NCBI GenBank assembly: GCA_002373935.1
Contig: DFKW01000002.1
Location: forward strand, 4,819-68,818
Length of the DNA: 64,000 bases
Direction: 5' to 3'
From: Alphaproteobacteria bacterium UBA3635
Lineage (GTDB): Bacteria; Pseudomonadota; Alphaproteobacteria; Rs-D84
The notes under the pieces are model-generated. The model was not told the DNA's origin. It searched no databases and worked only from the letters and a program-made list of their open reading frames with translations. Made by a program: the position numbers and the translations under genes. Shown piece after piece: positions 27,715-60,536 of the stretch; position 1 is the first letter of the stretch; every line of letters starts with the position of its first letter.

Positions 27715-27791
27715 GCACCCGTGGCTCAACTGGATAAAGCACCACCCTCCGAAGGTGGGGATTGCGCGTTCGAATCGCGCCGGGTGCGCCA
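27715..27791 (+). tRNA. tRNA-Arg, anticodon CCG
   Basis: Acceptor GCACCCG/CGGGTGC, anticodon stem CCACC/GGTGG with loop CTCCGAA, T arm GCGCG-TTCGAAT-CGCGC, encoded CCA. Confidence 0.9.
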
Positions 27792-27795
27792 CCAA

Positions 27796-27825
27796 TTTTC
27801 GTTATTGCGCGTGAAACGCACAATT
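27796..27825 (+). repeat. Perfect 30-bp direct repeat, copy 1 (TTTTCGTTATTGCGCGTGAAACGCACAATT)
   Basis: Identical to 27913-27942. Contains the hairpin that follows the tRNA. Confidence 0.9.
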
Positions 27826-27899
27826 AAGAAAATTGAGTGCCACGCCGTAGCTATGCATAACCTGGGAAATATATTTCAGATTTATCGGCGAAGGCGGGC
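27826..27899 (+). repeat. 76-nt repeat family, copy A
   Basis: AAGAAAATTGAGTGCCACGCCGTAGC ... TATCGGCGAAGGCGGGC. Same end blocks as copies B-E. Confidence 0.8.
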
Positions 27900-27912
27900 T
27901 AAACAAATCGAT

Positions 27913-28682: not shown

Positions 28683-30371
28683 ATGAAAGATTTATCCAAA
28701 GGTTTATTTAATCCGGTGGCAAACGAAGATTTCGTTGCCATGTTTGACAAAAATTACGGCACCCAGGAAACACTTCAGGGTTTCGCAACCAAGGGCACGG
28801 TCAAAGACATCCGTGGCGATTTCGTTTTGGTTGATGTGGGCCTGAAATCCGAGGGTCGCGTTCCATTAAAAGAATTCGGCGCATCTGTCCCCGCCGTTGG
28901 TGACATCATTGATGTTTTCGTTGAAAGATACGAATCTCGCGAGGGTACCGCCGTTTTATCTTATGCCAAGGCACGCGCCGAAAAGGCATGGAAAGATTTG
29001 GAAAAAATTGTTGCCGAAGGCATCGACCCAACCGGCACAATTATCGATGTTGTCCGTGGTGGTTATACCGTCGACATCAATGGCGTATTTGCATTTATGC
29101 CGTCATCTCAAATTGACCACAAACCTGTTCGCGATGCGAAATCTATGATTGGTTTGACCGACAAATTCCGTGTTTTGAAAATGGATGCGTTGCGTACAAA
29201 CGCGATTGTTTCCCGTCGTGCAATCCAGGCCGACACAATCGCCGCCCAACAAAAAGAGGCGATGAAAAACATCGAATTGGGCGCCGTTTTGGAAGGTACC
29301 GTCAAAAACATCACCGATTATGGTGTCTTTGTTGATTTGGGCGGAATCGATGGTTTGTTGCATGTGACGGACTTGTCATGGAAACGCGTCAATCACCCAC
29401 GTGAATTGGTTCATGTTGGCGACAAGATAAAGGTCAAAGTTATCCAATTCGACCCGGAAACACACCGTATTTCATTGGGCGCAAAACAATTAGAAGACGA
29501 CCCATGGGAAACAGCGTCCCGCGCATTTAATGTTGGCGATACCGTTTCCGGCCGTGTTGCATCCATCACCGATTACGGCGCATTTATCGATTTGGGCAAT
29601 AATATCGAGGGCCTGGTCCACATGTCTGAATTGTCATGGACAAACAAAAACATCCACCCCAGCAAGGTTTTATCCGTTGGCCAGGATGTTAATGTTGTAG
29701 TTTTGGACATTGACCAAGAAAAACGTCGTATTTCGTTGGGTTATAAACAATTACAACCAAACCCGTGGAAACAATTTGCCGAAACACACAATGTTGGCGA
29801 TATTGTGACGGGTCCAATTAAAAACACGACTGAATTTGGTTTGTTTATTGCATTGACACCTGATTTAGACGGTATGGTTCACATTTCCGACCTGTCTTGG
29901 AATAAATTGGACGAAGAAGAATTGAAAAAATTCGTTCGTGGCCAAGAAGTGACGGCGAAAATTTTGGACATCAATCCGGACAAAGAACGTGTCACATTGG
30001 GCATTAAACAATTAACCGAAAGTGCGGAAAACAATAACATCGCAATCAAGAAAGGCGCGGTTGTATCGGGCACAGTTTCCGAAATCACACCGGACGAATT
30101 GATTGTGAAATTGGCGGGCGATGCGCGTGGCGTTATCCGTCGCACGGACCTGTCGCGTGTTAAATCCGAACAAGATACATCCAAATACAATGTTGGCGAC
30201 ACTGTCGAGGCATCGGTTGTATCCGTCGAAGATAACACGGTCAAATTGTCCATCCGTCACTTACAGGTGACATTGGAAAAACAAGCGGTCAAAGAATTCG
30301 CGAACGAGGCCGATTCTGGTTCTGTCTTGGGCGACATCTTGGGCGCTGCCATTGAAAACAGCAAGAAATAA
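28683..30371 (+). CDS. rpsA: 30S ribosomal protein S1
   Basis: 562 aa from ATG 28683; the track TTG 18 nt upstream is less likely. Six S1 OB-fold repeats. Confidence 0.95.
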   Translation: MKDLSKGLFNPVANEDFVAMFDKNYGTQETLQGFATKGTVKDIRGDFVLVDVGLKSEGRVPLKEFGASVPAVGDIIDVFVERYESREGTAVLSYAKARAEKAWKDLEKIVAEGIDPTGTIIDVVRGGYTVDINGVFAFMPSSQIDHKPVRDAKSMIGLTDKFRVLKMDALRTNAIVSRRAIQADTIAAQQKEAMKNIELGAVLEGTVKNITDYGVFVDLGGIDGLLHVTDLSWKRVNHPRELVHVGDKIKVKVIQFDPETHRISLGAKQLEDDPWETASRAFNVGDTVSGRVASITDYGAFIDLGNNIEGLVHMSELSWTNKNIHPSKVLSVGQDVNVVVLDIDQEKRRISLGYKQLQPNPWKQFAETHNVGDIVTGPIKNTTEFGLFIALTPDLDGMVHISDLSWNKLDEEELKKFVRGQEVTAKILDINPDKERVTLGIKQLTESAENNNIAIKKGAVVSGTVSEITPDELIVKLAGDARGVIRRTDLSRVKSEQDTSKYNVGDTVEASVVSVEDNTVKLSIRHLQVTLEKQAVKEFANEADSGSVLGDILGAAIENSKK

Positions 30372-30390
30372 TTTTATATCTCTTGCACAT

Positions 30391-30424
30391 AAAAAATCCC
30401 GGTAATTTTATCGGGATTTTTTTT
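30391..30424 (+). terminator. rpsA terminator
   Basis: ATCCCG...CGGGAT hairpin followed by a T-run of eight or more. Confidence 0.8.
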
Positions 30425-30507
30425 ACCGCCACTTTCCGGACATTTATCTTTACCGCGCCCCCTCGGACATTCCCCGTCGCCAATTTTTACCGAGGTAAAA
30501 CCGAGGA

Positions 30508-30583
30508 TAAAAAATTGAGCGCCGCGCCGTAGCATTGTTCGTTTTTTAAGAAAAAAACTTTACTGTTATCGGCGAAGGCGGGC
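30508..30583 (+). repeat. 76-nt repeat family, copy B
   Basis: Identical to the reverse complement of copy E (54342-54417). Confidence 0.85.
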
Positions 30584-30627
30584 AAACCATCACGTCAGCG
30601 AAACAGACGGGACAGTGCAAAAAAATA

Positions 30628-30657
30628 TTGCACACGCAAAAAATTTTTTTCTATAAT
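30628..30657 (+). promoter_or_regulatory. Candidate sigma70 promoter of the modular-protein gene
   Basis: TTGCAC, 18-nt spacer, TATAAT. The paralogous leader has the same architecture (TTGCAA-18-TATAAT). Confidence 0.6.
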
Positions 30658-30978
30658 GCAAATGTGAATCCAAAAAAAACTAAGGGAGTTGGATTCCGGT
30701 GGCTTTAGCAGGCCTGTATATCCGGTGCAAGATTTGCATCGTGACTCTCCCACACTCGCCCGATTCGATTCGGCGGGGTTGTGTTTGTCGCATTTCATTT
30801 TTTGCACCGACATTTATTTATCGTCGGTAAAAAAAAATTACCCGGATTTATAAATGCAGATTTTTCCCATGTGATAACCCCTGAAGCGAAATTATGTTTC
30901 GTCGGGGTGCCGCGGTGTCGGATAAAAACGCCCGTGGAATCATTGATATACTGATTTGCTAACACCCCGGCCGTATTC

Positions 30979-31009
30979 CCGTTGGATTCCCAGCGGTTTT
31001 TTTATTTTT
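30979..31009 (+). terminator. Terminator-like hairpin plus T-run inside the leader (candidate attenuator)
   Basis: CCGTTGG-ATTC-CCAGCGG then TTTTTTTATTTTT, about 50 nt before the ATG. The T-run block is conserved in the paralogous leader. Confidence 0.45.
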
Positions 31010-31060
31010 GCAATCGCGAAAATAGAAAAACGCAGAACCAAAAGAACGGGGAGAAAAGTT

Positions 31061-32863
31061 ATGAGAAAAATTTTATTGGGATTGGTTGGGGTTGTCTGTG
31101 CATTATTCGCGGTGCCGGCGCACGCCGCATTACCTGGTGGATATACTGAATTAGAGTATATCGAAAGCACCGGGACACAGTATTTGGATTTGGATACCGG
31201 TACACAAACAGGTGTGTTCAAAATTATTGCCGATGTGTATGCAGCGGGTTCTACAAGTTGGCAATATTTATTTGGTTATTCAACAGATACTGGTGGCAGC
31301 CCTTTAGGTGTTTGGGTTTCAAACAACAAGATAAAAGAAACTTTTGCAGCTGGGAACGGAAATGTTATCGCAGATGTGAACAAATGGGAACATATAGATA
31401 TAACTAATTCGGACACTGTCACGATATCTGATTTTTATATATTTCATGTAAATCCGACCGGTATTACAAGTTATACAATTAATCCTGGAAGGATTAAATA
31501 TTTACAATTAAAAAAAGATGGAGACACTATTCGCGATATGGTCTCGGCGAAACGGAACAGCGACGGCGCGATTGGTATGTACGACACGGTTGGCGGGCGG
31601 TTTTATACCAATGCCGGGACTGGCACTTTCATTGCCGGCCCCGAAACAACAGGCCCATGTGCGAATATGTTTAATTTATCAATCATAACACAGGGGCTAA
31701 TAAATTCTAAAAACGGTGAATTCTCAGCAACGGAAGAACTTTATTATTCAACTGATTACGTGTCTATTACAGCAAATACAGCATATGTTTTATCGCCTGC
31801 AAAACTAGGTTCGTCTCTTTATGGTTTGGCTTGGTTCAATTCAAATAAACAATATATTTCTGGAAGTTTATACAGTGGTGAAAATTCACAAAAGTTTGTT
31901 GCACCAAATAACGCAAAATACGTAAGGTTTAGTGTGTACGAACCTTATGCGACAGAAACATCTTTCAAACCCGCGTCATGTGTCGAGATTCAGGTTGCGA
32001 CGACGAAATATGTTGAAACGCAGTTTAGTGATTTAGGGACACGGTTGGCGGCGGCGGTCGCGACGGTGAACACCGTTGTCACGAACACTATCAATCAGGC
32101 GGCGAGTATTGCGACACTGCAATCGGGGAAGCAAACCCGCCCAGCGAACGACACCTGTCCCGCCGGCAAGAAATGCCTGCTGGTCACCGACGAAAATAAT
32201 GTTCCCCACTGGTACGAAATATTCGACCCGATAAACCGCTGGATGGAGGCATTTTTCAAAACAAACCCGGACGGACAATATGTCGATGGTGGCGCAGATT
32301 TCCGCCGGTGGCAGGGCAACCCAGATTTCCGCAAAACATATATTGATGGTTCAACATCTGTCTATGTTCGGCAATGGACGGAGGCGTCGCCCGTACGCAC
32401 GGTTGGCGGCATGTATCAAACTTTGCCCGCGGGTGATATTGAAAACGCGGGTTCTTGGGCGGTTGAATGGGATGGGACCGAGGGCGACATCGACGCGGGC
32501 GCGGTGTACGGTATTGCAAAATGCACGTCTGTGGCGGGGACATTTGCCAATAAATTGACATCGGCGAACGAGAGCGCGTTCTATGAATTGCCGGCACCGG
32601 TGGGTCAAACGGACCGCACGGGATATGAACGGGAAAACTTTAAACAGTGCTGGTGCAAGATGACGGCGGTTGGTGTCCCTGGCGAGGATGGAACGGCTGC
32701 AAACGGGGATGTTTACCCTGTAAACCAGTCGTCCTCTGCGTGGGTCTTCGCCGACACGTACGGTTCGGCCGCCAATTGTGCGAACATCTGTGCGTACGAC
32801 TGCGCGGACCGCGTCCGTCTTAGCGCGTCGTTTCGGTCTGCGGTGTTTGGATTATCGGAGTGA
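31061..32863 (+). CDS. Large secreted modular protein, paralog 1 (600 aa; module order A-B-C-D)
   Basis: ATG 31061 after a GGGGAGAAAAG SD; the track start 30956 lies in the leader hairpin. Signal peptide MRKILLGLVGVVCALFAVPAHA. Shares the GYTELEYIESTGTQY, RNSDGAIGMYDTV..TNAGTGTF and ATTKY..IATLQSGKQTRPANDTCP..PHWYEI modules with 51408-53537. Confidence 0.8.
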   Translation: MRKILLGLVGVVCALFAVPAHAALPGGYTELEYIESTGTQYLDLDTGTQTGVFKIIADVYAAGSTSWQYLFGYSTDTGGSPLGVWVSNNKIKETFAAGNGNVIADVNKWEHIDITNSDTVTISDFYIFHVNPTGITSYTINPGRIKYLQLKKDGDTIRDMVSAKRNSDGAIGMYDTVGGRFYTNAGTGTFIAGPETTGPCANMFNLSIITQGLINSKNGEFSATEELYYSTDYVSITANTAYVLSPAKLGSSLYGLAWFNSNKQYISGSLYSGENSQKFVAPNNAKYVRFSVYEPYATETSFKPASCVEIQVATTKYVETQFSDLGTRLAAAVATVNTVVTNTINQAASIATLQSGKQTRPANDTCPAGKKCLLVTDENNVPHWYEIFDPINRWMEAFFKTNPDGQYVDGGADFRRWQGNPDFRKTYIDGSTSVYVRQWTEASPVRTVGGMYQTLPAGDIENAGSWAVEWDGTEGDIDAGAVYGIAKCTSVAGTFANKLTSANESAFYELPAPVGQTDRTGYERENFKQCWCKMTAVGVPGEDGTAANGDVYPVNQSSSAWVFADTYGSAANCANICAYDCADRVRLSASFRSAVFGLSE

Positions 32864-41771: not shown

Positions 41772-41893
41772 ATTTTAACCCTTTGTTTAATATGAACGAC
41801 ACGATTATGCCGCACACCCGCCAAAAAGTCAAGAAAAATCAATACGGTATTATTATACCGCAAATTTTGGTTATTGTTTGTGCAAACAAACAA

Positions 41894-41969
41894 TTAAGAA
41901 AATTTAGCGTCACGCCGTAGCATTGCACAAAAATTGAAAACAACCTTTGTTTTATCAGCGTAGGCGGAC
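41894..41969 (+). repeat. 76-nt repeat family, copy C (most diverged)
   Basis: TTAAGAAAATTTAGCGTCACGCCGTAGCATTG ... TATCAGCGTAGGCGGAC. Confidence 0.7.
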
Positions 41970-41992
41970 AAAATTTTTATCAAATAAAATTC

Positions 41993-44347: not shown

Positions 44348-44368
44348 TTATCAAAAAAATATAATTTT

Positions 44369-44446
44369 GCCCGCCTACGCCGACAAAAACAAAGTATTTT
44401 TTCCAGATTACGAACAATGCTACGGCGCGGCACTCAATTTTCTTAA
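44369..44446 (-). repeat. 76-nt repeat family, copy D
   Basis: The reverse complement reads TTAAGAAAATTGAGTGCCGCGCCGTAGCATTG ... TGTCGGCGTAGGCGGGC. Confidence 0.8.
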
Positions 44447-44489
44447 ATCAAAAACCGCCATATTGGCGGTTTTGATAAACGAAAATTGG

Positions 44490-44580
44490 TGGCGGAGATA
44501 GGGGGATTCGAACCCTCGATACGGTCGCCCGTATACACGATTTCGAGTCGTGCGCATTCAACCAGCTCTGCCATATCTCC
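44490..44580 (-). tRNA. tRNA-Ser, anticodon CGA (class II)
   Basis: Acceptor GGAGATA/TATCTCC, anticodon stem CACGA/TCGTG with loop CTCGAAA, long variable arm, T arm GAGGG-TTCGAAT-CCCCC, encoded CCA. Confidence 0.9.
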
Positions 44581-51407: not shown

Positions 51408-53537
51408 TCACATCCCAAGCAACACAGAACGGACGGTTCCATGCTCGCGAACGTAAGTCGCGCAGCGGTACGCACAGTGGGTCGCACACTCAGTCGTTGA
51501 ATCGTATGGGCTGGAAAACACCCACAAATCCGAAGACGGCGCGACATTGTATTCCCCACCAACGGTTAATCCTGACACTTTGCACCAACACCCTGTCCCT
51601 GTTGTATTCCAATTCGCATTACTTAATTGACTCGATGTTGCGGCGGTCGCATATGTCCCACTTACCCCATTACACAACCCCTCGCCATACACTGTGCCGG
51701 CGCTGATACCATTGCTGGCATTGGCGGTCCAAGTCGCAGTCCAAGTCGGGTTCGCCGGAACATCGGTATTCGCAACGGTCGGTCCCGCGGTGAATGTGCC
51801 TGTGCCCGCATTGGTAAAGAAAGTTTTCGTGACGGTATCATACATCCCAATCGCACCGTCGCTGTTGCGACGCACAGGAATCATATTGCGGATCAGGGTA
51901 CCACTGGTATTTTTATGTTGATACGAATATATACGTGCTTTTGTTAAATAATTACCAGCAAAGAACAAATACATATGACCAGAAGTTTGAAAATCTGTTG
52001 ATAAAGCCTCCACAGCAACAACATCATCAAACGATAGCTTTCCTTGACCCATTGTAATCACATGCGACAAACCATCATCAGTTGGAGGTGTAGCAAATTC
52101 AATCCATGCGCTTGTGTCATAAAACAGAGTTCCTCCTGTGGGATACATGTTATAAAAACTTACCGTTGCCGACTTACCATTGCTGGAAAAATAACCAAAT
52201 AGCATATGACTTCCGCTTTCACGTGTTATATTGGAATATTTAACGGTAACCAAGTCAGTTCCTGAAAACGCAACCCCCGTATCAATATATTGTGTTCCGG
52301 TGGATTCAATGTATTCCAGCTGAGTATAACCCTGGGTGGATGTTGATGATGCCGCGTTGACATTATTCGCGATGATGGGGGCGACGAAATCCCGGAACGG
52401 GTCGGTGATTTCGTACCAGTGTGGAACACCTTGCTCATCCTCAACCAACAAACATTGTTTATACGCCGGGCAAGTGTCGTTCGCAGGGCGGGTTTGCTTG
52501 CCACTCTGCAAAGTCGCAATACTGGCGGCCTGGGCAATCGTTCGCGACACCACACTGTCCACCACACTAATCGCATTTTGCAGCGCCGTATTCAGCGGAT
52601 TAAACACCGTCTCGGTGTATTTTGTGGTTGCAATTTTTATCTTTGTTTCATGACATCCTGGATGATACGGCACATACGCCGTGGCGGTCGAACCCAATTC
52701 CAATTGAGGGTTTGCGTTTATAACATCTTGGACGGACAACTCAGAATTATCAGGTTTTTGTAATGAGAATCGCATATATCTTGCATTTTCGGGAACGGTT
52801 GCATTGAACTGATTTGTTGAGGACATTAACAGGAAAGATTTATTTTCATCGTAAAAATATGAACCATGAACAATGATATTACTATTGCTGGATGAAAACA
52901 CATATTTTTGCCCCGGGGTGACGGGAATATATTCCGACATCGCGACACGGTGTGTCATTGTTCCTGCATTTGTGCCAGTATCATCTTGAATTCCTATCTG
53001 TTGTAGCAAATTTGGGTCTAACAAATTCTTACACCGTTCCATACATGTTGCATCGTATGGCGTGTATGGTGTTGCGGTGGAACCTTGTTCGATCATCGGT
53101 CTGACCACAAGGTTATTTGCAGTGTATCCGCGCATAATGCGAATTGCGTACATACCAAGTCGCCATTCTGATGTTGCTGTACGCCTAATTGGGTCACCGG
53201 TTCTTGTGTCAAAAAAATCTGAAGTTGCATTACCACTTATATAGCCCCCATATAAATCCAAAATGTATGTTGAAGATGAGCCACCCGTTATGCCAGAAAT
53301 AGTATATGTGCCCGCAGGTAGCACCAAGTTATTTGCAGAATTAGCAACTATATAATTTGCATACTCAGAATCATCGTTTACAGAACCGTTGATAATTATT
53401 GAACCATCCGGTTGTGGTGTAAATGTAACGCCGTGCACTGTAACTGGTGATGTGTTATAAACCGGCAGCAAATTGCAATTTGCAAAACTTGGTATCGTGA
53501 ATAACAACCCGATTATTGCACATAATATTTTTCTCAT
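51408..53537 (-). CDS. Large secreted modular protein, paralog 2 (709 aa; module order B'-B-C-A-D)
   Basis: ATG 53537 after an AAGGA SD; the track start 53645 lies in a non-coding leader insert. Signal peptide MRKILCAIIGLLFTIPSFA. Shares modules with 31061-32863 in a different order. Confidence 0.8.
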   Translation of the reverse strand: MRKILCAIIGLLFTIPSFANCNLLPVYNTSPVTVHGVTFTPQPDGSIIINGSVNDDSEYANYIVANSANNLVLPAGTYTISGITGGSSSTYILDLYGGYISGNATSDFFDTRTGDPIRRTATSEWRLGMYAIRIMRGYTANNLVVRPMIEQGSTATPYTPYDATCMERCKNLLDPNLLQQIGIQDDTGTNAGTMTHRVAMSEYIPVTPGQKYVFSSSNSNIIVHGSYFYDENKSFLLMSSTNQFNATVPENARYMRFSLQKPDNSELSVQDVINANPQLELGSTATAYVPYHPGCHETKIKIATTKYTETVFNPLNTALQNAISVVDSVVSRTIAQAASIATLQSGKQTRPANDTCPAYKQCLLVEDEQGVPHWYEITDPFRDFVAPIIANNVNAASSTSTQGYTQLEYIESTGTQYIDTGVAFSGTDLVTVKYSNITRESGSHMLFGYFSSNGKSATVSFYNMYPTGGTLFYDTSAWIEFATPPTDDGLSHVITMGQGKLSFDDVVAVEALSTDFQTSGHMYLFFAGNYLTKARIYSYQHKNTSGTLIRNMIPVRRNSDGAIGMYDTVTKTFFTNAGTGTFTAGPTVANTDVPANPTWTATWTANASNGISAGTVYGEGLCNGVSGTYATAATSSQLSNANWNTTGTGCWCKVSGLTVGGEYNVAPSSDLWVFSSPYDSTTECATHCAYRCATYVREHGTVRSVLLGM

Positions 53538-53590
53538 TTTTCCCGTCCTTTTCTTTTCGATTTGTGTTTCACACAACGGTGAAACCGTTG

Positions 53591-53768
53591 TGTCATCCCG
53601 AGGGAGCAAAACCTGCGATGTCGCGCATTCGCAGTTTTGCGACACGTGGGGATCCAGGTCTATTAAAGTGTCGGCACAGCCGACGGCTTTATTATTAACT
53701 GGATTGCCACGCGTCGTTTTTACGTTCTTGGCGTTCCGCCAAGGTGTAAAAACTCCCTCGCAATGACA
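53591..53768. repeat. 178-bp segment bounded by 16-bp imperfect inverted repeats (TGTCATCCCGAGGGAG / CTCCCTCGCAATGACA)
   Basis: 14 of 16 positions are complementary. Lies inside a 355-bp stretch that is absent from the paralogous leader. Confidence 0.6.
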
Positions 53769-54266
53769 AAGTGCGTTGCACTTTGTCCGGAATCTTTGCG
53801 GTGGATGTGTTTTGTATGCCGGGACTTTTATGGCCTTAGCAGATTTTTACAGGGAATTGAGTTCGAGTCGAAAACCCCGGCAAAACAAAACGTCCGTTTT
53901 TCTATTTTCGCGTTCGCGAAAAATAAAAAAACCGCCAAATCCTATGGGAAAAATGGCAGGGGTGTTAGAAAAATCAAAAACGCAATGATCCCGCAAGTAT
54001 TTCTACAGGCGGCACCCCGCCAAACACCAAATGTTTTGGGGGCTTTCAATCATATTGGGAAAAATATCTATTTATAAATCGTGAATAAACACCGACGATA
54101 AATAAATATCGGTGCAAAAAGTGAATTGTCACACAAAGCCACCCCCGATACGAATCGAATCGGGTATGATGGAACCTTTGGGGTAACGATGCAGGTTTTG
54201 CACCGGCGTTTTTGGGCTTTTCTAAAGACCCTGTTGAATCCAACTCCCATCAGGATTCACATTTGC

Positions 54267-54296
54267 ATTATAGAAAATGAAATTTATTTATTGCAA
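54267..54296 (-). promoter_or_regulatory. Candidate sigma70 promoter of paralog 2
   Basis: The minus strand reads TTGCAA, 18-nt spacer, TATAAT, at the same position as in copy 1. Confidence 0.6.
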
Positions 54297-54341
54297 GAAT
54301 ATTTTTGAACTGCCCCGTCTGTTTCGCTGACGTGATGGTTT

Positions 54342-54417
54342 GCCCGCCTTCGCCGATAACAGTAAAGTTTTTTTCTTAAAAAACGAACAATGCTACGGCG
54401 CGGCGCTCAATTTTTTA
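54342..54417 (-). repeat. 76-nt repeat family, copy E
   Basis: Identical to the reverse complement of copy B. Confidence 0.85.
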
Positions 54418-54576
54418 TCCTCGCGTTGCTTCGGTAAAAATTGGCGACGGGGAATGTCCAGAATAATAATTATTCATCAACCACAGTCGCGGCTCTGCGA
54501 CAGCAGAGACGGATGAACTCTGCCTGCGCCCCATAGCCCAACGGGCGACGGGGTGAACTCTGAAAACTGAACACTG

Positions 54577-54607
54577 AAAAAAACCGGCATACGCCGGTTT
54601 TTTTTTA
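54577..54607 (-). terminator. carD terminator
   Basis: CCGGC-GTAT-GCCGG hairpin with a T-run on the minus strand, immediately after the carD stop. Confidence 0.75.
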
Positions 54608-59195: not shown

Positions 59196-59313
59196 ATCTT
59201 TTTCGTCCCTTTGAATTTTTATCCCCTAAATCATAGCCACATTTGCAAATATTATCAAGCCCAAAGTTCCCCGCCAAATTCTACCACAGCAACGCGTGCA
59301 TTAAAAAAAACAT

Positions 59314-59532
59314 AGGATTCAAACCAATCGACACAGTATAAAAATAAAATCGGCATAAATGCCGATTTGAAAATTCGCAACGCGTCAATGCCGATAATCG
59401 CGGCTTTGCCTGCGGCAAAGACGGATGGCGGAGCGTGTAGGATTTGAACCTACGGACCGCGTTACCACGGTCACGGATTAGCAATCCGCTGCATTTACCC
59501 CTCTGCCAACGCTCCGGATGGTTGGTATTATA
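59314..59532. repeat. 219-bp direct repeat, copy 1 (tRNA-Ser(GCT) plus 112-nt tail plus 17 nt upstream)
   Basis: Differs from 60290-60508 at a single position (59516 G versus 60492 T). Confidence 0.95.
59426..59515 (-). tRNA. tRNA-Ser, anticodon GCT, copy 1
   Basis: Acceptor GGAGCGT/ACGCTCC, anticodon stem GCGGA/TCCGT with loop TTGCTAA, long variable arm, T arm GTAGG-TTCAAAT-CCTAC, encoded CCA. Confidence 0.9.
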
Positions 59533-59548
59533 TATTTTTTTGCACCTT

Positions 59549-60219: not shown

Positions 60220-60289
60220 ATTGTGTTTATTACACTGCCGTTTATAAACACAAACTCATAGTGAACCAAGGGACAACGATGTTGTCCAC

Positions 60290-60508
60290 AGGATTCAAAC
60301 CAATCGACACAGTATAAAAATAAAATCGGCATAAATGCCGATTTGAAAATTCGCAACGCGTCAATGCCGATAATCGCGGCTTTGCCTGCGGCAAAGACGG
60401 ATGGCGGAGCGTGTAGGATTTGAACCTACGGACCGCGTTACCACGGTCACGGATTAGCAATCCGCTGCATTTACCCCTCTGCCAACGCTCCTGATGGTTG
60501 GTATTATA
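60290..60508. repeat. 219-bp direct repeat, copy 2
   Basis: See 59314-59532. The repeat period is 976 bp. Confidence 0.95.
60402..60491 (-). tRNA. tRNA-Ser, anticodon GCT, copy 2
   Basis: Identical to copy 1. Confidence 0.9.
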
Positions 60509-60536
60509 CTGTTTTTTTTATCAAACACAAGTCAAA

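Follow-up and report, generated by a model that had tools for sequence, protein, structure and literature searches.

A folded RNA leader ending in an intrinsic terminator precedes one family of secreted-protein genes in gut Alphaproteobacteria

Introduction

Several described systems place a related RNA or DNA block in front of genes for surface or secreted products. The c-di-GMP-I (GEMM-I) riboswitches often stand before pilin, adhesin and secreted-protein genes, in many copies per genome. Capsular-polysaccharide loci of Bacteroides carry long 5′ leaders that are read through with locus-specific NusG-like UpxY proteins, and other factor-dependent antitermination leaders include the LoaP targets and the ribonucleic antiterminator (RAT) elements of BglG and SacY. 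The large RNAs ROOL, GOLLD, raiA, OLE and HEARO are, to our knowledge, mostly stand-alone genes, and all of them have Rfam models. In the sap homologues of Campylobacter fetus and the vsp/vlp genes of Mycoplasma, a shared upstream block serves DNA recombination or promoter sharing. Here, we analyzed a 64-kb stretch of contig DFKW01000002.1 of Alphaproteobacteria bacterium UBA3635 (the window, 64,000 nt), in which two paralogous genes for secreted proteins are each preceded by a long conserved leader. An earlier note on this DNA had proposed that the leader is a family-specific cis-regulatory RNA of the attenuator or riboswitch-like kind.

Our analysis covers 60 leader copies, 55 of them unique, from at least six rumen or gut metagenome-assembled genomes (MAGs) and from metagenomes. 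We conclude that the leader is a new, unclassified, family-specific folded RNA that ends in an intrinsic terminator, and we weigh how such an RNA could control the gene behind it.

Results

The leader has a conserved promoter and a fold supported by covariation

In both window copies, the leader unit, which we call module B, runs from a promoter through an RNA of ~340 nt and an intrinsic terminator to an A-run (copy 1, 30628-31032 on the plus strand; copy 2, 53895-54296 on the minus strand). The promoter of copy 1 (30628-30657, plus strand) consists of TTGCAC, an 18-nt spacer and TATAAT, with a predicted transcription start at about 30664-30666, and that of copy 2 (54267-54296, minus strand) of TTGCAA, an 18-nt spacer and TATAAT. 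Each is the best sigma-70-like site of its region (10/12 positions). The pattern TTGCNN-spacer-TANNNT was found in 52 of the 55 unique copies, with a spacer of 18 nt in 50 and of 17 nt in 2, and the equally spaced -35/-10 pairs described in the earlier note are thus not only present in both window copies but also kept in their relatives. Among the 52 copies with a recognizable promoter, 46 have hairpin P1 starting 7-8 nt past the -10 box, which is where transcription would be expected to begin.

A full MAFFT alignment analyzed with RNAalifold recovered only P1, P3, P5, part of P7 and the long-range helix LR1; the variable hairpins were misaligned, and anchored sub-alignments were therefore used for helix scoring. 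The significance of covariation was judged by comparing the observed score with those of 500 shuffles for each of three alignments. We also compared pairing within copies with pairing between copies, a duplex test that is decisive for LR1 and uninformative for the candidate antiterminator, the terminator, the helix LR2 and the outer part of P6, all of which are conserved in sequence.

Read from its 5′ end in the coordinates of copy 1 (plus strand), the RNA opens with P1 (30666-30696), a GAAUCCA/UGGAUUC hairpin with the conserved loop motif GGGAGUU, in which 95.8% of the cells are paired and three of six pairs change on both sides. The GGGA of its loop may form a pseudoknot, PK1, with UCCC/CUCCC after P3 (87% paired). 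P2 (30701-30714) is a short, weakly supported GGC...GCC hairpin with 88% of cells paired; the compensatory change reported for it from the two window copies (GGC/GCC versus GGG/CCC) is a single weak example, and P2 shows little covariation overall. The 5′ strand of LR1 (30716-30722, GUAUAUC; partner 30945-30951) leads directly into P3 (30723-30741, CGGUGCA/UGCAUCG), a highly conserved hairpin with 99.6-99.7% of cells paired and G-U as the commonest pair at one position. P4 (30757-30778) is a variable hairpin with a conserved CGAUUCG motif, recognized by inspection of the 55 copies in a part where the alignment is unreliable, and P5 (30806-30828) is an ACCGAC/GUCGGU hairpin after an invariant UUUUGCA, with 87.5% of cells paired and four of seven pairs changing on both sides.

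In the 3′ half, P6 (30878-30907) combines an outer CCCC/GGGG stem with a variable inner hairpin; it was predicted in every copy with differing inner stems (79% paired), its inner hairpin clearly covaries, and its 3′ strand overlaps the 5′ strand of a putative antiterminator (30901-30909). All six inner pairs of P7 (30910-30937) change on both sides, and a GNRA tetraloop caps this hairpin in most copies (GCGA, GUAA, GAAA or GCAA). The segment that follows (30939-30951) contains AUCAU(U), the 3′ strand of the tentative helix LR2, whose partner lies at 30871-30875 (79.5% paired, with partial covariation), and then GAUAUAC, the 3′ strand of LR1. In copy 2, the leader RNA from P1 to the U-run occupies 53919-54258 on the minus strand, and LR1 pairs 54206-54213 with 53976-53983.

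One clade departs from the window copies in the middle of the leader. In the RUG14746/RUG13870 clade (L035, L026, L042, L043, L045, L055 and relatives), P5 is a GC-containing hairpin of 8-12 bp followed by U6-8 (columns 209-255 of alignment A7), a second, internal terminator-like site at a place where the window copies have an A-run.

LR1, first predicted by RNAalifold on 31 copies, joins nucleotides just 5′ of P3 with those just 3′ of GGGAUCAUU, about 220-300 nt apart. The helix is 7-9 bp long and different in nearly every copy, with 34 distinct 5′ strands among the 55 unique copies; examples are GUAUAUC/GAUAUAC in copy 1, AAAAACGC/GCGUUUUU in copy 2 and ACAAAAGUC/GACUUUUGU in L042. Uninterrupted duplexes between its strands have a median length of 9 bp when both strands come from one copy and of 2.0 bp when they come from different copies. 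In a mini-alignment, both partners vary in each of the seven pairs, pairing holds in 94% of cells versus 23-51% when the partner is slid, and the covariation score is 0.591 versus 0.194 after shuffling, a value reached by none of the 500 shuffles.

Short perfect inverted repeats around ~220 nt upstream of a surface-protein gene could also be read as an inverton, in which the LR1 arms would flip part of the upstream region. We rejected this explanation and regard it as extremely improbable: the arms are only 7-9 bp long, hypervariable and devoid of a conserved recombinase site, the promoter lies outside them, and LR1 contains G-U pairs. No inversion joints were found in four DNA runs for the window or in two probable DNA runs of unrecorded library type for L035, and the joints seen in the same DNA runs were "skip" joints between paralogues, none of them strand-changing.

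The covariation extends beyond LR1. The 5′ domain (P1, P2, P3, P5 and the possible PK1) is 89.8% paired and the 3′ domain (LR2, P6, P7 and the terminator) 80.4%, and in neither case did any of 500 shuffles reach the observed score. Over all annotated pairs, we counted 317 G-U cells versus 105 A-C cells (~3:1), an excess indicating that it is the sense-strand RNA that folds. Fold z-scores against shuffled sequence were -5.9 and -4.9 for the two window leaders, the latter for copy 2. The earlier note had suggested looking for covariation in a larger alignment, and over the 55 unique copies it is strong, even in the hypervariable LR1. Taken together, these results leave us nearly certain that the leader is a functional RNA structure of the sense strand.

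The same sequence similarity could instead reflect a DNA-level homology tract for recombination or gene conversion among the paralogues, with the RNA fold incidental. Such a role would suit the paralogous proteins with their shuffled modules, the mosaic leaders in which the same terminator or P7 variants are joined to different LR1 sequences, the two window copies, which are inverted relative to each other, 23 kb apart and 98% identical over a 125-nt stretch, and the assembly graphs, which connect paralogous leaders. However, a homology tract gives no account of two-sided compensatory changes in distant helix strands, of the threefold excess of G-U over A-C, or of a conserved promoter or terminator, and we consider it quite unlikely. 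Recombination among leaders and genes probably operates in addition to the RNA function.

Protein coding does not explain the conservation either. Mechanical open reading frames (ORFs) of 43-57 aa overlap the region, which could point to a leader peptide or an unannotated small protein, but no conserved ORF was found: the most frequent position of an ATG-initiated ORF is shared by 12 of the 55 copies and the peptides are unrelated, no start or frame is conserved, and the indels are not multiples of three. We therefore rejected a peptide as the cause, an idea that now has hardly any credibility, and the statement of the earlier note that the two window copies have no ORF in common extends to the whole collection.

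The fold does not belong to a described class as far as Rfam 15 covers them. At gathering thresholds, the whole window yielded only 7 tRNAs, and scans with relaxed cut-offs (E<=10 for copy 1, E<=1 for copy 2 and L035) returned sub-threshold noise, with a best score of 25.8 bits against a threshold of 52. No Rfam family, GEMM-I, GEMM-II and cobalamin riboswitches included, thus matched the three divergent copies, which agrees with the earlier failure to assign the leader to a known class. A T-box leader was considered separately and rejected, since there is no RF00230 match, no T-box sequence, no specifier loop and no aminoacyl-tRNA synthetase context; GGGGUGCCGC resembles the T-box motif only loosely.

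The leader closes with an intrinsic terminator and a candidate competing helix

In copy 1, the intrinsic terminator (30979-31009, plus strand) is a 7-bp stem, CCGUUGG/CCAGCGG, followed by U7AU5, and corresponds to the 7-bp hairpin and U-run that had been noticed before the ATG. In copy 2 (minus strand), the stem lies at 53932-53958 and the U-run, which ends the leader RNA, at 53919-53931. A hairpin followed by a U-run of at least four closes all 55 unique anchored copies except one that is cut by its contig, with U5-9 in all but three, and the terminator stem is 93% paired with compensatory changes.

Most copies have 10-46 nt between the U-run at the leader end and the ATG, and no second promoter was detected between the U-run and the ATG of the window copies. 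A separate promoter would not fit into a gap of this length, and the genes would therefore have to rely on read-through from the leader promoter. Every transcript of such a gene would then have to pass the terminator, as in an attenuator.

Past the terminator, an A-run (31015-31032, plus strand, in copy 1; 53895-53912, minus strand, in copy 2) is complementary to the terminator U-run. The complementary T-run and A-run span 30997-31032 and 53895-53931 in the two window copies, as expected from the earlier description of a final block complementary to a downstream run. Within a copy, the A-run and the U-run can form a median of 12 uninterrupted bp, and the two runs covary, as in UUUUGUGUUUU with AAAACACAAAA; this pairing is possible only in read-through transcripts.

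A helix that could compete with the terminator would form between CACCCCGGC (30963-30971, plus strand) and GUCGGGGUG (30901-30909). Almost every copy keeps the two strands of this candidate antiterminator, GG(U)CGGGGUG:CACCCCG(A)CC, complementary (84% paired; median length 10 bp when one bulge is allowed). When the 3′ arm of the terminator is left out, the helix appears in the minimum-energy fold of 44 of the 55 copies, where P7 lies inside it together with a small AUCA/UGAU hairpin that has the 3′ strand of LR1 as its loop. Of 54 copies, 39 show an overlap of at least 3 nt between this helix and the 5′ arm of the terminator; window copy 2 is among them, with the overlapping 3′ strand at 53954-53964. 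We put this antiterminator forward as a hypothesis drawn from sequence complementarity.

The leader unit is specific to one secreted-protein family

A profile of the four leader copies then known, both window copies included, found module B with nhmmer at ~31 genome loci in 6 MAGs; the window copies themselves scored E 2e-130 and 2e-115, partly by construction, since both are in the profile. These ~31 leaders always lie on the strand of the gene and upstream of a family gene, with none elsewhere in 560 kb. The genome loci came from a protein-based scan of species-representative genomes, which gave 60 of them, with many paralogues per genome, from the rumen MAGs RUG13375, RUG13827, RUG13870, RUG14746 and RGIG3440, another uncultured alphaproteobacterial MAG and Candidatus Enterousia onthequi. 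As lower bounds, RUG14746 has at least 11 leaders, RUG13827 at least 8, RUG13870 at least 4 and RUG13375 at least 3.

As a gene-blind control, a degenerate DNA pattern taken from the leader was scanned over metagenome contigs, which gave 120 stretches, 29 of them true leaders by nhmmer. Of these leaders, 23 are followed by a gene matching the hidden Markov model of the family and 2 by a contig-cut gene with the family signal peptide, and the remaining 4 sit at contig ends with no space for a gene. The leader unit is therefore specific to one secreted-protein family, and its other neighbors differ among the loci examined (rpsA, carD, tyrS, a secretin gene).

A second subfamily of the same protein family, with the signal peptide MS[VAI]K[RC]..FF, has no leader (L010, L014, L031, L034, L038, L050, L053, L054 and L057). 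Each of its members has instead its own conserved region of ~240 nt upstream of the ATG, unlike the leader, with two AAAAAACCTAGGTTT boxes that have a palindromic CCTAGG core and look like operator sites. A further locus has a phage-type setting: in L188, an IMG/VR contig of 10.6 kb, a leader (2-373) precedes a gene (404-1273) for a 289-aa family protein, the same gene as in L111, and the neighbors include a T7-like scaffold, a capsid protein (PF19821), a weak terminase-N match, a helix-turn-helix regulator and DnaB. Some family members may thus be carried by a prophage or phage, or L188 may be merely a junction between chromosome and prophage.

The repeat shared by the two window copies is composite

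The earlier note had described a leader of about 570 bp from a block-wise alignment of the two window copies in inverted orientation. The alignment itself was borne out: 30465-31032 matches the reverse complement of 53893-54460, with one arm of 125 nt that is 98% complementary according to a repeat finder (30502-30626 with 54299-54423) and block-wise similarity in the remainder. The repeat is composite, however, made of a module A in its first ~155 nt and of module B, the leader unit, which begins at the promoter. The leader claim accordingly holds for 30628-31032 and fails for 30465-30617, which is a separate repeat 5′ of the promoter.

Module A is a two-hairpin repeat that lies upstream of the promoter beside copy 1 (30465-30617, plus strand), where it has the ends GGACATTCCCCGTC...GACGGGACAGT, and recurs beside copy 2 (54309-54460, minus strand). 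Three other copies of this repeat of ~115-150 nt were found at 27790-27905 (plus), 41860-41975 (plus) and 44366-44495 (minus), giving five in the 64-kb window with none expected by chance. They share the pattern CCAATTTT-[variable hairpin]-AAAATTGAGYGCCRCGCCGTAGC...GCGWAGGCGGGC, and the alignment and the folds indicate that the two-hairpin fold is common to all five. Two copies begin exactly at the CCA end of a tRNA gene, tRNA-Arg(CCG) and tRNA-Ser(CGA). Just 2 further copies were present in ~705 kb of related loci. In L002, the leader is present (94% identical to copy 1 from 30609 on) and module A is missing upstream, and in L001 and L029, module A is placed between the leader and the gene; since its position varies or the repeat is absent among relatives, module A is no part of the leader RNA. 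It is short, non-coding, multi-copy and capable of forming hairpins, and it occurs in differing contexts, all features of repeats like miniature inverted-repeat transposable elements or repetitive extragenic palindromes. Candidate identities for module A are a small RNA, a trailer linked to tRNAs and a mobile repeat.

The start codons of the two downstream genes lie at 31061 (gene 1) and 53537 (gene 2), and counted from the predicted transcription starts, the 5′ untranslated regions (UTRs) would be ~396 nt for copy 1 and ~720 nt for copy 2, close to the ~400 and ~730 nt given before. Copy 2 holds 357 nt more than copy 1 between the leader and the ATG (53538-53894, minus strand), an insert of other small intergenic repeats that sits before the start codon of gene 2 and is missing from copy 1. 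Pieces of this insert match L001 at 1741-1873 and 2810-2878. More generally, the intergenic regions of this lineage (the window, L001 and L002) are crowded with several families of small palindromic repeats, such as CCCCTTCTTTATGAAAGAAGGGG and GGACATTCCCCGTC...GACGGGGCAGT, and the 357-nt insert is a mosaic of such repeats.

Two further observations concern the flanks of the window copies. A terminator hairpin of rpsA (30361-30425) lies directly 5′ of module A, and the closest metatranscriptome strain departs from the window right after the rpsA stop codon (30371), which marks the intergenic region as strain-variable. Near copy 2, just 3′ of the carD terminator, 54520-54578 contains a short repeated motif that is matched by metatranscriptome contigs of 387-448 nt; these contigs are deep, at 57-112 versus ~9 for rpsA in the same runs, and there is thus an abundant RNA that shares this repeat.

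The downstream genes encode secreted paralogues of a genome-reduced lineage

Gene 1 (31061-32863, plus strand), with the Shine-Dalgarno sequence GGGGAG at 31048-31053, encodes a secreted family protein of 600 aa, and gene 2 (51408-53537, minus strand) a 709-aa paralogue with the same modules in another order. Both proteins have signal peptides, and the description of the two genes as paralogous surface-protein genes fits these shuffled modules and signal peptides. The downstream protein has more than 970 homologues, and those with a named source are all hypothetical proteins of uncultured gut or rumen Alphaproteobacteria. No match was found in Pfam, NCBIfam or the sequences of the PDB. An AlphaFold model (mean predicted local distance difference test score, 70.6) has a confident C-terminal domain besides its beta-sandwich modules and a helix of 40 residues; a Foldseek search with this model gave no match at E<=0.001, and weak domain-level hints from the model point to LamG-like or lectin-like beta-sandwiches and to a phage tail fibre.

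The window is a segment of a bacterial chromosome, with polA, rpsA, carD, a pyruvate:ferredoxin oxidoreductase gene and 7 tRNA genes, and DNA of this locus occurs in ruminant gut metagenomes. It also contains a direct repeat of 231 nt (98% identical; 59311-59541 and 60287-60517, 976 nt apart), a duplication of tRNA-Ser(GCT) with its flanks. Bacteria of the order Rs-D84, including Candidatus Enterousia, have genomes below about 1 Mb, lack most biosynthetic pathways and are thought to depend on partners (PMC12306168). The window organism probably belongs to the same group, since the leader-bearing relatives include a Ca. Enterousia MAG.

Discussion

The family-specific attenuator or riboswitch-like RNA suggested by the earlier note is supported by the covariation, the conserved promoter and the terminal hairpin with its U-run, from which we infer a regulatory action. 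Two general marks of riboswitches are present as well, namely a structured domain backed by covariation (LR1, P1, P3, P5, P7 and the inner part of P6) and a terminator that in most copies lies directly upstream of the gene. We think it probable, although well short of certain, that the leader attenuates transcription in cis, in the manner of a riboswitch or an antitermination system, with termination as the regulated step; the start site, termination and read-through are read from sequence features.

In the mechanism we propose, the leader promoter would start the ~340-nt RNA, which would fold into P1-P7, with LR1 clamping the 5′ and 3′ halves together and LR2 and PK1 as probable further contacts. 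By default, RNA polymerase would halt at the terminator. A common trans factor, be it a small molecule, a protein or an RNA, would recognize the conserved folded domain and shift the balance from P6 and the terminator to the GG(U)CGGGGUG:CACCCCG(A)CC helix, which would occupy the 5′ arm of the terminator and let the polymerase read into the gene. P6 and the antiterminator would compete for one G-run, with P6 as the anti-antiterminator in the usual three-way scheme that includes antiterminator and terminator. LR1 and LR2 would use the AUCAUUG-plus-address segment, which could otherwise form the AUCA/UGAU hairpin and its loop, so that the long-range and the local fold may represent the two states of the switch. 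As the same leader stands before many paralogues per genome, one signal could gate the leader-bearing subfamily.

Several observations weigh against this proposal. The candidate antiterminator did not covary above shuffled alignments (173/500 shuffles reached the observed score), and its core never varies, which means that covariation cannot confirm the helix. In 15 of 54 copies, window copy 1 among them, the helix and the terminator stem, as drawn, have no overlap, and LR2 and PK1 are only moderately supported. About a third of the copies, including window copy 2, carry 135-470 nt of inserted repeats between terminator and ATG, and the genes behind the leader are non-metabolic. The transcript data also call for caution, as they consist of assembled metatranscriptome contigs of low depth in which DNA carry-over is possible. 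The contigs do show leader sequence in metatranscriptomes: two runs each contain one contig, of 248 nt and 151 nt, that matches the interior of the L035 leader exactly, and pieces of related leaders were found in four further RNA runs. In those two runs, no contig covers the unique coding part of the L035 gene. The same part is also missing from two runs of unrecorded library type that are probably DNA, and the lack of coverage may therefore reflect strain differences.

Some of these observations would fit another explanation, in which the leader would be an independent gene for a structured small RNA that acts in trans or in a ribonucleoprotein and has merely been duplicated along with the family genes. 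The unit is self-contained from the conserved promoter through the hairpin and U-run, insertions before the gene are tolerated, the GNRA-capped helix and the long-range pairings recall large non-coding RNAs, and the RNA contigs cover the interior of the leader and not the coding sequence. On the other hand, the short gap from U-run to ATG in most copies leaves no space for a promoter of the gene, and none was detected. There is one leader per gene in a constant orientation (60/60, 4 of them at contig ends), which argues for cis action, and 10 or more divergent copies per genome would be unusual for a trans-acting RNA. We therefore consider a stand-alone RNA gene unlikely, and return to attenuation in cis as our preferred reading.

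A bolder version of attenuation in cis is that the leader represents a large (~300 nt) new class of RNA switch that senses a ligand or factor and serves as master gate for the leader-bearing secreted lectin-like proteins in these genome-reduced, probably partner-dependent gut Alphaproteobacteria (Rs-D84 and relatives of Ca. Enterousia). We offer this tentatively and would not yet bet on it. If it holds, a single signal derived from the host or a partner would select which surface proteins are made, with at least 11 copies in one MAG; alternatively, the mechanism would be copy-selective and use the unique LR1 "address" helix of each leader.

These small genomes keep many paralogues, and each one in the leader-bearing subfamily has a unit of promoter, leader and terminator of ~420 bp. 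For genomes of this size the investment is large, which suggests that the lifestyle of these organisms depends centrally on how the proteins are controlled. The leader offers an entry point to gene regulation in an uncultured lineage and is a candidate for a new riboswitch or antitermination class, and its signal could tell us what the organisms perceive, whether in the gut or on partner cells.

Among the systems introduced above, those that recombine DNA share the setting of this locus. Like the sap and vsp/vlp genes, it involves a secreted multigene family with mosaic coding regions, a shared upstream block and inverted copies in one genome, but every leader comes with a promoter and a terminator of its own, and the constraint on it is that of an RNA secondary structure. 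The large RNAs ROOL, GOLLD, raiA, OLE and HEARO are similar in size (several hundred nt), in their long-range helices and GNRA tetraloops and in their occurrence in uncultured or host-associated bacteria, whereas this leader lies strictly 5′ of one protein family and matches none of their models.

Closer to our proposal, the UpxY-type leaders likewise serve a family of surface-structure loci, each with a related long leader to be read through; by this likeness, a gut bacterium would control its variable surface products coordinately or in a hierarchy. Compared with RAT or ops-like elements, the leader is far more elaborately folded, and no antiterminator protein gene was linked to it in the loci examined. 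With GEMM-I and T-box-type leaders, it shares a promoter-proximal folded 5′ leader, a terminator just before the start codon and a candidate competing helix, although, unlike in established riboswitch and attenuator platforms, this helix has no covariation support. GEMM-I also has the same genomic arrangement, with many copies per genome before genes for surface or secreted proteins, but the folded part of the leader described here, at ~300 nt with long-range helices and without an Rfam match, is much larger.

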